Assembly (NCBI GenBank): GCA_964362395.1
Contig: CAYIER010000007.1
Span: 5,177-20,840, forward strand
Reading direction: 5' to 3'
DNA from: an uncultured archaeon
Lineage (GTDB): Archaea; Iainarchaeota; Iainarchaeia; Iainarchaeales; GW2011-AR10
DNA: 15,664 nucleotides
How positions within the stretch are numbered: position 1 is the stretch's first letter; each line of letters starts with the position of its first letter. Made by a program: the position numbers and the translations under genes. Positions 6,878 through 9,770 of this stretch are shown here, piece after piece. The notes under the pieces are model-generated. The model was given only the letters and a program-made list of their open reading frames with translations, was not told where the DNA came from and did no database searches.

Positions 6878-7462
6878 TTATTTGTTTGCAGCGATTTTTT
6901 TCACGCGTTTTTGCACCCAGTTAGGGGATTTCTTCAGGTAGGCAGCCAGCAGCTTTTTGTTTGACTGCTCCAATAATTTGCCCGCAACGCCTGCAGGGAT
7001 TTTTTGGCGAAAATAAACAAAATCAATGAGTGTTTTTTCTGGCGTTGAAACAGGTAGCCAAAAATCATAATGCTTGACGAGTTCAAACCCAAAAAACATG
7101 CCTGCATCAACCCTTCGTACAACCACGTTTGCGCCCATTATTGCCCTCAAGCCAGGCCGCACCTTTTTTTGGGTAACTATCACCGGGTTTGCCGCCTGAT
7201 CCCACACATTGTGGAACGAAAGGGCCTGGTGCAGCCCATAATAAAAAGGCGAAAAAGCAAACCCGCAAACCAAAATGTCATCTTTAAAAGAATAAAACCC
7301 TTTGGCGATTTTGCGGAGTTTTCCTTTTTTTTGCAGGTAATGAATCAAAAAATACAGGTATTGCCTTGAAATTTTTTTTTGCTTCAAAAAAATCCGCGCA
7401 TCACGAATTGAAAACACTTCGCGGCCGCCAAAATGCCTGACAAAATCTGAAATGTACTTCAC
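6878..7462 (-). CDS. AbiEi-like (COG5340-type) wHTH transcriptional regulator/antitoxin of a type IV TA system
   Basis: The N-terminus MKYISDFVRHFGGREVFSIRDARIFLKQKKISRQYLYFLIHYLQKKGKLRKIAKGFYSF fits the AbiEi N-terminal wHTH pattern (fs..dl...g.s...L..L.k.G.l.ri.rG.Y). GTG start overlapping the upstream TGA (GTGA) implies translational coupling. 194 aa. Confidence 0.55.
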   Translation of the reverse strand: MKYISDFVRHFGGREVFSIRDARIFLKQKKISRQYLYFLIHYLQKKGKLRKIAKGFYSFKDDILVCGFAFSPFYYGLHQALSFHNVWDQAANPVIVTQKKVRPGLRAIMGANVVVRRVDAGMFFGFELVKHYDFWLPVSTPEKTLIDFVYFRQKIPAGVAGKLLEQSNKKLLAAYLKKSPNWVQKRVKKIAANK

Positions 7463-8106
7463 TGCAAAAACCTCCTTTTCAAAACAACAGCCATTTGTTC
7501 AAATGAAGGGACAGCGCCTGCCAAAACCAAATTTTTGAGGTTTTGTTCATCAGCCGGTTTTGGAAGATTTTCAAGCAAACCAGCAACCATTTTGGAAAAT
7601 TTTTCATCATTTGAAGAAAAGCGGCTCAAATGAAAAACGTCATAAATGTCCCGAATCAGCCTGCGGTTTTTGAATGCATTCAGTTTTTCAACCAGCAATT
7701 CATCAGCAGAAGGGGTAAAAATATCAATTGAAGTGCCGTCTGCTTTTTCGTATTCAGAAACAGCCGGCTTTTTGAATTCACGCAAAGCAATTTCCAATGC
7801 AACACTGACTTTTTCTTTTTCAATTTTTGAATAAACTGCGTTTTCTGTTTTGCGGAATTTTGTGATTTTTAAACCAAGCAACCCAAGTTTTTTTTCTAGC
7901 AATTCCTTAAAATCCGCCTTGGGCTTTATATAAAAGTCCAAATCCTCTGAAAACCTGTTTCCGCCAAAGCACCGCCAGATGGCTGTGCCGCCGTGCAAAA
8001 CCGCATTTTCTTCAAGCGAATATACAGTTTCAACCACAATGTCCTGCAGTTCTGCAATATCCTTGTGAAGAGTGCGCTTCAGCCTGTTGTGCAAAGGAAT
8101 CTTCAT
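7459..8106 (-). CDS. AbiEii/DUF1814-family nucleotidyltransferase toxin (COG2253-like)
   Basis: HGGTAIWRCFGGNRFSEDLDF (nt about 7941-7994) matches motifs I (hGGt) and II (RxSxDlD) of DUF1814/AbiEii nucleotidyltransferases. A downstream EK...RDIYD motif is present. 215 aa. Its own TATA is at 8127-8139. Confidence 0.7.
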   Translation of the reverse strand: MKIPLHNRLKRTLHKDIAELQDIVVETVYSLEENAVLHGGTAIWRCFGGNRFSEDLDFYIKPKADFKELLEKKLGLLGLKITKFRKTENAVYSKIEKEKVSVALEIALREFKKPAVSEYEKADGTSIDIFTPSADELLVEKLNAFKNRRLIRDIYDVFHLSRFSSNDEKFSKMVAGLLENLPKPADEQNLKNLVLAGAVPSFEQMAVVLKRRFLQ

Positions 8107-8126
8107 AAATTAATGAATCAACCAAA

Positions 8127-8139
8127 CTTATAAAAAAAC
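8127..8139 (-). promoter_or_regulatory. TATA-like element (tttttttataag on minus) about 25 nt upstream of the abiEii ATG (leaderless)
   Basis: Spacing to the ATG at 8106; consensus-like TTTATAA. Confidence 0.4.
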
Positions 8140-8194
8140 CTATGTTTGGGCGATTCAATAAAAAGTATGGTTTTTGGCGGTTCCAGCTATTTTT

Positions 8195-8977
8195 TCACTC
8201 GCTTTCTATGCGGGGCGCCAAGAAGTAGCTGATTTTTGCCTTGTCGATTTCGTATGAGACCTGCACGGGGGCATTGTTTTTGAGCTTCACGGTGACAGGC
8301 CCCTCTGCTGACGAGGCCTTGACCATGTCTGCAAGGTAGTCCAGCGGAAACATTGCCTCTGCCTCCCGCTTTGATTTTATTTCGTAAATTGACTTGTTGT
8401 CCTTTGCAAGCGCCTCGTTGTTGACCTTCCCTTTGCTCGAGTGCGCTTTCATGAAAAACTTTTCCTCATCCACGCCAAGTGTGATATGCGTGCTGATGAG
8501 GGCAGCGTCCTTTAAACCGTCCTTTAAAACATCCGCGTTAAGCTTTATTTCCGCGTCAAAATCAATTTTTGGGCTAGGCAGTTTTGAGGAACTAATGTCA
8601 ATGAGTGGGACCTCAAAAACCCTTTTCTGGCTCCCGACAAAAGAAACCAAAAGCTTTGACTTCTGCTCGTTTAATGACAGGCGCAGCGAATCCCCTGCCT
8701 TTGCCCGATTTAAAACCGAGCCAAAAAAATCAAGGTCAATGCCAAGCTTTGTCTCGCCGTCAATTTTGTATTCCTTAAAGGCCTTTTTGTCAAGCGAATA
8801 ATCAATCATTGCAATCTGGCTTGGGTCAGTTGCCTTTAACTGCAGGCCAGTTTCACTGACGTCAAATTCTGCCTCGTCAATAAGCACAGAAATCGCGTCA
8901 ACGCTTTTCTTAAAAGAAACAGCATTCTCCAAAACAAGCTCCACGAACAAACCCCTCTTTTGATTAATGTTCCTCAT
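8195..8977 (-). CDS. DNA polymerase sliding clamp PCNA (paralog 2, divergent)
   Basis: LFVELVLENAVSFKKSVDAISVLIDEAEFDV..DPSQIAMIDY..GIDLDFF..PLIDI..FLAP aligns position-for-position with PCNA1 and with canonical PCNA. The listed ORF start at 9046 is TTG and would overlap the signal peptidase gene by 44 nt. The in-frame ATG at 8975-8977 (MRNINQKRGLFVEL...) is preferred. Confidence 0.75.
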   Translation of the reverse strand: MRNINQKRGLFVELVLENAVSFKKSVDAISVLIDEAEFDVSETGLQLKATDPSQIAMIDYSLDKKAFKEYKIDGETKLGIDLDFFGSVLNRAKAGDSLRLSLNEQKSKLLVSFVGSQKRVFEVPLIDISSSKLPSPKIDFDAEIKLNADVLKDGLKDAALISTHITLGVDEEKFFMKAHSSKGKVNNEALAKDNKSIYEIKSKREAEAMFPLDYLADMVKASSAEGPVTVKLKNNAPVQVSYEIDKAKISYFLAPRIESE

Positions 8978-9002
8978 ATCCTTAAAAATCGTTTTATCAG
9001 GT

Positions 9003-9770
9003 TCAACATATTCCCGAAAAAGCGGCCGGCAGCTTTCCACGGACAATCAGGCTCAACAAGTCATCAAAAACCCAGAGTTTCACGCACCCGATTCTTGGCA
9101 GCCAGAAAAGCGCCTTTCCCTGAATTTTGTCTGCCCTAATTGCGCCGCGCGTAATGCCGACCTCTTGGTCAATTTTTGAATTGCATAAGTTGTCCCCCTT
9201 GGTCAAAAGGTATGTGCCATCGTTTGCGTTTATTTTTGAAACAACACGGTGGATAATCGGCTCGCCAAGAGTGTTCGAATTGTAAACAATGATGTCACCG
9301 GATTTTTCAACAGGAAGTTTTTTGCCCTGATAAAACTGTATTGAAGTCGTGTTGTAATTGGCTGGACAGCTTAACGGCAGCGGGGCACAGTCAACTTCCT
9401 GCGCAAAACCGGTTTTTGTGCAAAGCGGCCTTGCATATGCCTGCAGCGGAAGCGCATCAACGAGCACCAATTTCAGTTCAACTGACTGAGCCTTAATGCC
9501 AGATGGTTTCACGCCGGAAATAAAAACAACGTCTCCGCGGAAAAGAACCGGCTCCATGCTGTCGCTTACAACAATCACCATCGGCGAACTCGTGCCAAGG
9601 AGCAGCCCAAGGAGGTTGAAAATAATGAACGCAAAAACAAACGCGGAAACAATGTAAACAGCCATCGAAATTGTGCCATTGTTTTTGGGGTTCACCACAG
9701 GCAACAAGTACTTGTCAACGTATGTGAATGGGTCAAGCCATTTGAGGTTTTCAAGCAACTTTTTCAACAT
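9003..9770 (-). CDS. Signal peptidase I (archaeal S26/Sec11-type)
   Basis: The N-terminal TM segment is followed by VVSDSMEP (catalytic Ser box). Conserved GD, HRV and KGDN segments. 255 aa with an insertion between boxes. Confidence 0.7.
   Translation of the reverse strand: MLKKLLENLKWLDPFTYVDKYLLPVVNPKNNGTISMAVYIVSAFVFAFIIFNLLGLLLGTSSPMVIVVSDSMEPVLFRGDVVFISGVKPSGIKAQSVELKLVLVDALPLQAYARPLCTKTGFAQEVDCAPLPLSCPANYNTTSIQFYQGKKLPVEKSGDIIVYNSNTLGEPIIHRVVSKINANDGTYLLTKGDNLCNSKIDQEVGITRGAIRADKIQGKALFWLPRIGCVKLWVFDDLLSLIVRGKLPAAFSGIC

Follow-up and report, generated by a model that had tools for sequence, protein, structure and literature searches.

Is a toxin gene placed ahead of the gene of its antitoxin a local oddity of a single contig, or a stable arrangement characteristic of a whole lineage? 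This question is raised by a 15,664-nucleotide (nt) stretch of DNA from an uncultured archaeon of the Iainarchaeota (assembly GCA_964362395.1, contig CAYIER010000007.1; hereinafter, the window). Its minus strand carries a putative toxin–antitoxin (TA) pair of the AbiE type, i.e., the abiEii open reading frame (ORF; 7459–8106, ATG start) coding for a 215-amino-acid (aa) nucleotidyltransferase, followed by the abiEi ORF (6878–7462, GTG start) coding for a 194-aa regulator. The antitoxin-first order, with the regulator gene before the nucleotidyltransferase gene, was described as the rule for AbiE (Dy et al. 2014, PMC3985639), and the present locus departs from it. The locus had been singled out in an original prediction made from the sequence letters, according to which the pair was AbiE-like, inverted in gene order, and equipped with a toxin of minimal size.

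The pair is considered here, with a probability of roughly 70%, to be a two-gene AbiE/MenAT-type TA (abortive-infection-type) operon representing a compact, DPANN-specific toxin-first branch and operating by the mechanism proposed below. Both ORFs and their overlap were confirmed by reading the sequence: at the junction (7459–7462, minus strand), the tetranucleotide GTGA combines the GTG start of abiEi (7462–7460) with the TGA stop of abiEii (7461–7459). In the alignment of abiEi relatives, the proteins open with an identical M-K-Y, which supports the GTG as the start of abiEi. The peptides GGTAIW...RFSEDLDF and RDIYD, quoted in the prediction, were both located in the 215-aa protein.

Gene Order and Protein Size in the DPANN Branch

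The search for homologues of the toxin returned 1371 clusters at 90% identity, and the matches listed were nearly all 210–219 aa long and of DPANN origin. Two signature peptides of the toxin were present in 502 of the 185,579 GTDB species genomes; the best 80 of the 502 loci were examined, and nearly all of these belonged to DPANN. An abiEi gene was found downstream of the toxin gene, on the same strand, in 79 of the 80 loci, the remaining one ending too early. A more divergent sub-branch, retrieved by scanning metagenomes with a profile of divergent members, was toxin-first in all 72 loci with room downstream, the genes overlapping mostly by 13 nt. Thus, the survey of gene order suggested in the original prediction yielded the toxin-first arrangement in every informative locus (151/151, i.e., 79 from genomes and 72 from metagenomes). 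A 4-nt overlap of the NTGA form was present at 75 of 81 junctions, ATGA accounting for 59 of these.

The size of the toxin is equally stable: in an exhaustive HMMER search, full-length relatives stayed within 209–229 aa down to ~30% identity, and longer proteins (245–273 aa), aligned in part, appeared mainly beyond E ~1e-13, with few earlier exceptions. The toxin-first order is, hence, a property of a large DPANN branch and no local oddity; both the inversion and the distinct compact archaeal subfamily surmised in the original prediction were borne out, the size of ~215 aa and the gene order being fixed across the branch. In the literature searched, no description was found of a whole DPANN branch that is uniformly toxin-first, has a toxin of ~215 aa, and carries a palindromic operator centred on the TATA box. 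The detection tools for AbiE do not demand a given gene order.

The canonical antitoxin-first order was encountered in remote relatives, namely in L082 and L083 from viral contigs and in the second pairs of L057 and L099. In the latter two loci, a distant canonical AbiE pair (L057, 5316–6733, plus strand; L099, 1–911, minus strand) is located 1–2 kb from the toxin-first pair. Since the two kinds of pairs share the same DPANN contigs, both architectures coexist in one genome.

Certain records deserve a separate mention. One metagenome-assembled genome (MAG) of Micrarchaeota, JACROM01, contains two toxin-first pairs (L063, 821–1462, and L067, 4001–4645) with toxins 69% identical, which may be paralogues or may reflect a mixture of strains in the bin. 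Typical DPANN-type pairs were also present in MAGs labelled as Falkowbacteria, Chloroflexi, Thaumarchaeota or Promethearchaeota (L053, L062, L010, L080), where mis-binning or concatenated records are a more likely source of the labels than real transfer.

The Toxin, AbiEii

The 215-aa protein belongs to the Pfam family PF08843 (AbiEii/DUF1814; 72.9 bits at a cut-off of 22.5, E 4.8e-20) and matches 26 PADLOC models of AbiEii, the best with E 2.9e-22. The Pol-beta motifs of AbiEii were defined by Dy et al. 2014 (PMC3985639); motifs I and II, hG[GS]...R-x-[ST]-x-D-x-D, are represented here by H38-G39-G40-T41 ... R51-F-S53-E-D55-L-D57, invariant or nearly so in 23 + 20 relatives. The alignment of the 23 relatives features the invariant residues G39-G40-T41, R51, S53, E54, D55, E105, E140-K141, R148, R152-D153 and D156, with D57 nearly invariant (at least 90%). 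In the second, more divergent set, G39, G40, R51, S53, D57, K141, R148, D153 and D156 are invariant, and D55 nearly so. Motif III, K141-L-N-A-F-K-N-R148, is a literal match to KLxAaxxR.

The profile alignment to chain 9HLO_B of the Streptococcus agalactiae AbiEii places K141 at K173, R148 at R180, and D156 at D192, the aspartate of motif IV; the same register of motifs I and II was also seen in the alignment with MenT4. In the S. agalactiae toxin, mutation of the residues G49, R63, D67, D69, K173, R180 and D192 abolishes toxicity (PMC3985639), and the invariant or nearly invariant residues of the present branch are in register with these. S53, located two residues before the first catalytic aspartate, corresponds to T65, which was described as the site of auto-phosphorylation in a 2026 preprint (10.64898/2026.01.19.700257).

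The AlphaFold model of the toxin (predicted local distance difference test, pLDDT, 94.5) was most similar in Foldseek to JHP933, MenT4, MenT3/TglT and MenT1, all of them DUF1814 proteins from the PDB. As judged from the sequence and the model, the 215-aa protein is a complete DUF1814 nucleotidyltransferase of the Pol-beta fold with every catalytic motif, in line with the identity assigned to it in the first place.

The claim of a minimal toxin holds only in part. The protein is indeed shorter than the AbiEii of S. agalactiae (215 vs. 287 aa), with ~30 residues fewer before and within the core and ~35 fewer at the C-terminus, but compact precedents exist, e.g., JHP933 (~230 aa), MenT1 (~190 aa), and several PADLOC AbiEii models of 203–220 positions. 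One cluster representative (P0172, 309 aa) bears an N-terminal extension of ~94 residues ahead of the full 215-aa toxin, either a fusion or a mis-called start.

The Antitoxin, AbiEi

In the 194-aa protein, the winged-helix family AbiEi_4 of Pfam scores 26.7 bits at a cut-off of 25, and the C-terminal domain AbiEi_1 is weakly matched (E 0.016). AbiEi_4 was matched by 22 of 23 relatives, and 21 PADLOC models of AbiEi by the protein itself (best E 2.2e-14, residues 13–149). The predicted layout comprises an N-terminal winged helix–turn–helix (approximately residues 1–60) followed by a C-terminal antitoxicity domain.

A search of the PDB with the sequence of the 194-aa protein gave no significant match, the top hit being AbiEi 6Y8Q from S. 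agalactiae (E 1.3), so a fold search was needed. The predicted structure (pLDDT 94.0) has as its top Foldseek match the same 6Y8Q (E 4.8e-6), followed by Rv2827c/MenA4 (1ZEL). A conserved loop, L86-W87-x-Q89-x-x-N92-P93, was also detected, whose W87/Q89/N92 line up with the D85-E86-I87 loop of the S. agalactiae AbiEi in an alignment that is nearly full-length but weak (E 1.3). Collectively, the sequence profiles and the model indicate that the 194-aa protein is a two-domain antitoxin/regulator of the AbiEi fold, and its identification as AbiEi is upheld. With the 194-aa protein of the AbiEi type and the 215-aa protein retaining its catalytic residues, both assignments stand.

At the same time, neither protein reaches the cut-off of the NCBIfam equivalog models (no match for AbiEii; TAA_AbiEi 15.6 bits vs. 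150), placing the pair outside the narrowly defined equivalogs of NCBI. Close relatives are already named by PGAP/NCBI as an “AbiEii/AbiGii family” toxin and an “AbiEi family” antitoxin.

A Candidate Operator Centred on the TATA Box

Upstream of abiEii, on the minus strand, lies a palindromic promoter or putative operator (8110–8161), TTATTGAATCGCCCAAACATA-ggttttttta-TAAGTTTGGTTGATTCATTAA, that is, a 21-nt inverted repeat with an N10 spacer and 81% complementarity. Across the branch, it takes the form of a ~40-bp palindrome, AATCAACCAAAC-N16-GTTTGGTTGATT, situated 10–49 nt ahead of the toxin ATG, with half-sites (G/A)CCCAAAC and GTTTGGTT 16 nt apart. Its centre is the TATA-box-like TTTTTATAA; in the window, the TATA-box-like core read from the sequence is TTTTTTTATAA (8128–8138, minus strand), ~25 nt before the abiEii ATG. 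The consensus AAT.AACCAAAcaTATA.TTTTaTATAA.TTTGGTT.ATT, at approximately -49 to -10 from the ATG, was recognizable in nearly all 79 homologous loci, including the conserved column block TTTTaTATAA, and no sequence conservation was found in these loci farther upstream than the palindrome. The feature had initially been delimited as 6878–8139: the ORFs are inside this span, but its upstream end should be shifted from 8139 to 8161, because the whole promoter palindrome must be included.

The AbiEi of S. agalactiae is known to bind inverted repeats in its promoter and to repress its own operon (PMC3985639). By this analogy, and from the conservation of the sequence, the ~40-bp palindrome is probably the operator of AbiEi; its location over the TATA box implies that its occupation would exclude TBP/TFB. 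The exact pair of half-sites was found nowhere in ~560 kb of loci besides the position upstream of abiEii, and the scan of the window revealed as the only comparable match elsewhere one with 3 mismatches, i.e., at chance level. A wider AbiEi regulon was thereby rejected, the operator motif being confined, in the loci and in the window, to the position upstream of abiEii. Scans for sigma-70 promoters and intrinsic terminators, which are uninformative for an archaeon, were at chance level.

In the divergent sub-branch (L131, L137, L155, L168 and other metagenome loci), both arms of the palindrome, ~40–10 nt upstream of abiEii, change together, AACCATTC...GTATGGTT vs. AACCAAAC...GTTTGGTT; another example of a half-site variant pair in the branch is AACCATTC / GAATGGTT. 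To judge from the sequences, such paired changes look like a co-evolution of the operator and the recognition helix.

Translation Starts and the Toxin:Antitoxin Balance

The archaeal TATA box is usually located ~26 nt upstream of the transcription start. With the TATA box ~25 nt before the ATG of abiEii, the inferred start would fall at or near this codon, and the toxin transcript is probably leaderless or near-leaderless. The start of abiEi is preceded, at a distance of 8 nt from its GTG, by a Shine–Dalgarno-like GGAGG (7471–7475, minus strand) embedded in the last codons of abiEii (K-R-R-F, AAA AGG AGG TTT). Of 73 loci, 73% have, ahead of abiEi, 4 or more nt matching the complement of the anti-Shine–Dalgarno sequence; the corresponding share is 24% for random positions within abiEii and 12% for the region preceding that gene. 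A leaderless first gene combined with Shine–Dalgarno-assisted internal genes is a common archaeal pattern, and the contrast between the two starts fits it.

The reversed order had originally been taken to upset the stoichiometry of toxin and antitoxin. The order is truly reversed, but the concern is softened by the Shine–Dalgarno-like site before abiEi, by the probable leaderless state of abiEii, and by the mode of neutralization. According to work on MenAT and AbiE from 2024–2026, the antitoxin (AbiEi/MenA) induces auto-phosphorylation of the toxin, i.e., acts by a type VII mechanism and not by simple titration (incl. preprint 10.64898/2026.01.19.700257). With such a mechanism, the toxin-first order need not leave the toxin in excess. 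For the same reason, the label “type IV”, initially attached to the pair, is outdated.

Proposed Mechanism and Alternative Explanations

Within this framework, a single archaeal promoter would drive both abiEii and abiEi, its transcript beginning at or beside the toxin ATG. The winged helix of AbiEi would bind the half-sites AACCAAAC / GTTTGGTT and block the access of TBP/TFB, resulting in negative autoregulation. Translation of abiEi would be coupled to that of abiEii via the GTGA and aided by the Shine–Dalgarno-like site, so that the antitoxin supply need not fall below the toxin supply despite the gene order. By homology with the MenT toxins and the S. agalactiae AbiEii, the free toxin may add nucleotides to the 3′ ends of tRNA and halt translation. 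The C-terminal domain of AbiEi would neutralize the toxin; most likely, it would bind AbiEii and induce the auto-phosphorylation of S53. The most likely role of such a system would be antiviral abortive infection or growth arrest.

DPANN archaea largely lack CRISPR and restriction systems, AbiE being reported among the few “first-line” families enriched there. Surveys list AbiE, along with SoFic, among the systems enriched in DPANN, and describe it as a first-line system in groundwater archaea; the DPANN count of AbiE (PMC12988326) is by homology only.

Several points, however, weigh against this interpretation. The distal half-site of the window departs from the consensus by 2 mismatches, and conserved Arg-Arg codons confound the Shine–Dalgarno signal of abiEi. 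The rate at which the pair diverges is, in two syntenic comparisons, about that of its housekeeping neighbours: in L001, the identity to the window is 76% for PCNA, 75% for AbiEii and 73% for AbiEi, and in L051 it is 58% for PCNA, 44% for the signal peptidase, 49% for AbiEii and 45% for AbiEi. Such similar divergence is more in keeping with a pair long resident in the chromosome than with a defence cassette of high mobility. Finally, the S. agalactiae AbiE in Escherichia coli gave no protection against 32 coliphages (2026 preprint), meaning that a defence role of AbiE is not universal.

All-against-all clustering of the flanking ORFs in the 80 loci gave no recurrent neighbour gene, a shared genomic context being limited to close relatives. 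Close relatives were lacking on the viral contigs of IMG/VR, where only remote, partial matches at 30–43% identity were obtained; two of these, L082 and L083, were checked, and both showed the canonical order. A tblastn search of plasmids gave two remote matches, JHP933-like sequences from Campylobacter without an AbiEi partner. With only remote relatives in both datasets, carriage of the branch by mobile elements was rejected. The absence of a recurrent neighbour, together with a divergence like that of the neighbouring genes, points to a self-contained cassette capable of long persistence in the chromosome.

These observations feed the strongest competing explanation, which remains rather unlikely: the same biochemistry would serve growth control, in a module that has long resided in Micrarchaeota and Iainarchaeota, is inherited mainly vertically, is not in the first place antiviral or mobile, and acts as a tRNA-directed brake, e.g., when the episymbiont is without its host. 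Apart from the parallel divergence in L001 and L051 and the lack of close relatives on the IMG/VR contigs, it draws on the spread of the branch (the signature in 502 of the 185,579 genomes, with the best 80 loci almost all from DPANN, and the 1371 clusters). It also draws on the strong conservation of both proteins and of the promoter/operator down to ~35–45% protein identity, and on the location of the pair in a replication-gene neighbourhood between two PCNA paralogues. Yet the 80 genomes do not share a conserved context, two copies 69% identical occur in one MAG, as in expanding TA families, and the pair adjoins a variably present Fic/SoFic-like gene of the defence type.

Taken further, and with comparable doubt, the compact toxin-first branch might be seen as an ancient, largely vertical module of Micrarchaeota and Iainarchaeota with a promoter-operator frozen since before these phyla split, i.e., as a growth switch directed at tRNA, domesticated and linked to the host-dependent lifestyle of DPANN, rather than a mobile antiviral cassette. 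In that event, the toxin-first, leaderless-then-coupled layout would adapt the operon to the way archaea express their genes and would set the toxin:antitoxin ratio.

Much less probable is the suggestion that the two genes do not form a TA pair at all, the nucleotidyltransferase being a non-toxic housekeeping enzyme acting on RNA or small molecules and the winged-helix protein its transcriptional regulator, whereby the enzyme-then-regulator order would become unremarkable. The pair is, admittedly, widespread, chromosomal and under purifying selection, and the promoter palindrome speaks for regulation only, not for neutralization. Still, the regulator retains, beyond the winged helix, the full C-terminal antitoxicity domain of AbiEi, as well as a loop that is strongly conserved and corresponds in position to the one AbiEi needs for toxin binding. 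The nucleotidyltransferase, in turn, retains the serine at the phosphoacceptor position and all residues needed for toxicity in the characterized homologues, and the strict 1:1 pairing of overlapping genes in 151/151 loci is a hallmark of TA systems.

An assembly, frameshift or annotation artefact behind the reversed order or the short toxin found no support (the metagenomic source contig has ~5x coverage) and is refuted by the agreement across datasets: the identical toxin protein, encoded on a 27.5-kb groundwater contig (Hainich aquifer, 0.1-µm fraction), is also carried by a Logan assembly made independently from a related run, the order and the compact length recur in 151 other loci from many studies, and the alignments run end to end with no truncation.

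Comparison with Characterized Systems

On the evidence of sequences and models, the TA pair of the window has the features of AbiE and of DUF1814–COG5340 systems, except for the usual gene order. With the AbiE of S. agalactiae and Lactococcus lactis (PMC3985639; Arrowsmith et al. 2026 preprint), it shares a DUF1814 nucleotidyltransferase with motifs I–IV, a two-domain AbiEi, a bicistronic organization in which the genes overlap by 4 nt, a promoter bearing inverted repeats, and a Ser/Thr two residues before the first catalytic aspartate. Unlike the S. agalactiae system, it has the reversed gene order and a DPANN archaeon as its host, at a sequence identity below 20%. The putative operator is archaeal, centred on TATA, with half-sites 16 nt apart, whereas that of S. 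agalactiae consists of 23-bp arms over a bacterial -35/-10 promoter.

The MenAT3, MenAT4 and MenAT1 systems of Mycobacterium tuberculosis share the fold of the toxin (Foldseek E 9e-8 to 2e-4) and the conserved Ser/Thr phosphoacceptor position; MenT1 offers a precedent for a compact DUF1814 toxin, and MenA4 (Rv2827c, 1ZEL) was the third PDB chain, and the second distinct protein, matched by the antitoxin model. Unlike the present pair, the MenAT loci are antitoxin-first, and MenA1 is a small unrelated antitoxin. The tRNA targets and nucleotide specificity of the MenT toxins are known.

A toxin-first DUF1814 pair is said to go back to Sberro et al. in 2013. According to the 2026 preprint, RlegA is encoded downstream of its toxin RlegT, constituting a toxin-first DUF1814 precedent. 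The preprint credits Sberro et al. 2013 with validating RlegTA, SanaTA and SdenTA by toxicity and rescue as well as by partial resistance to T7. By that description, these systems can be likened to the present pair as combinations of a DUF1814 toxin with a COG5340-type antitoxin; they are described as bacterial, whereas the present branch is archaeal.

The archaeal counterpart is PygAT of Pyrococcus yayanosii, an AbiE-type COG5340–COG2253 pair validated as a TA system. It differs from the present one in being antitoxin-first (PYCH_15320, 208 aa, then PYCH_15330, a longer toxin of 253 aa) and in its location on an integrative genomic island. The solved structure closest to the toxin both by sequence (E 2.8e-9) and by fold is that of JHP933 from Helicobacter pylori (PDB 4O8S/4OK0), which is likewise compact at ~230 aa; its origin is bacterial, in a plasticity zone or conjugative plasmid, and the neighbours of its Campylobacter homologue are small hypothetical proteins without AbiEi.

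The novelty is, therefore, bounded: AbiE names are present in public annotation, the enrichment in DPANN has been published, RlegTA is toxin-first, and compact DUF1814 proteins are known. The DPANN form is a discrete architectural variant of AbiE, combining the toxin-first order, a toxin of ~215 aa, the 4-nt overlap and the TATA-centred palindrome, and no new kind of system. Its value consists in a precise and testable, if putative, archaeal repressor–operator pair. It also offers a natural case for studying the toxin:antitoxin balance when the toxin is translated first, with leaderless vs. coupled, Shine–Dalgarno-assisted initiation, and a minimal DUF1814 toxin for structural and target work.

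Homopolymer Runs and Genomic Setting

Two adenine runs within abiEi, both on the minus strand, had been regarded as potential slippage sites: an A9 run at 7372–7380 (codons Q-K-K-I) and an A8 run at 7325–7332 (codons Q-K-K-G). Both runs do exist, but the slippage role found no support. The window contains 13 runs of at least A8 vs. 23.4 ± 7.3 expected from dinucleotide shuffles, and no disrupted or frameshifted abiEi occurred among the 79 relatives with room for the gene. The runs recur at the same codons in several relatives, as expected from conserved lysines in A+T-rich genes. Slippage was, on these grounds, rejected as a feature of the locus, and phase variation is unsupported. A T7 run (7386–7392, minus strand) was also noticed inside abiEi; it precedes the A9 run by 5 nt (codons R-I-F-L-K-Q-K-K-I). 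Archaeal transcription may terminate at oligo-T tracts; attenuation of abiEi transcripts by this run is purely speculative.

The nearest relatives are annotated as Candidatus Iainarchaeum or Diapherotrites, i.e., as DPANN archaea. The pair is surrounded by housekeeping genes, the gene order being Lon protease, RNA polymerase subunit L, signal peptidase, PCNA, abiEii, abiEi, Fic, RpiB, second PCNA, primase. The PCNA paralogues (8195–9046 and 4296–5132, both on the minus strand) bracket the AbiE–Fic–RpiB block, and the primase large-subunit gene comes after the second one. The long PCNA ORF (TTG start, 283 aa) overlaps the signal-peptidase ORF; the public gene call begins later and gives 260 aa.

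The Fic-domain protein (315 aa; 5740–6687, minus strand), bearing the motif HPFEDGNGRVGR, is encoded on the strand of abiEi, 190 nt farther downstream, and scores E 8e-18 with Pfam Fic, 3e-39 with PADLOC PDC-S04, and 2e-25 with SoFic. The Fic gene and the AbiE pair form a small defence-type cluster. L001, a close relative, has no Fic gene between abiEi and RpiB, and the copy in L003, 67% identical, lies on the opposite strand; the Fic gene is, hence, independently variable.

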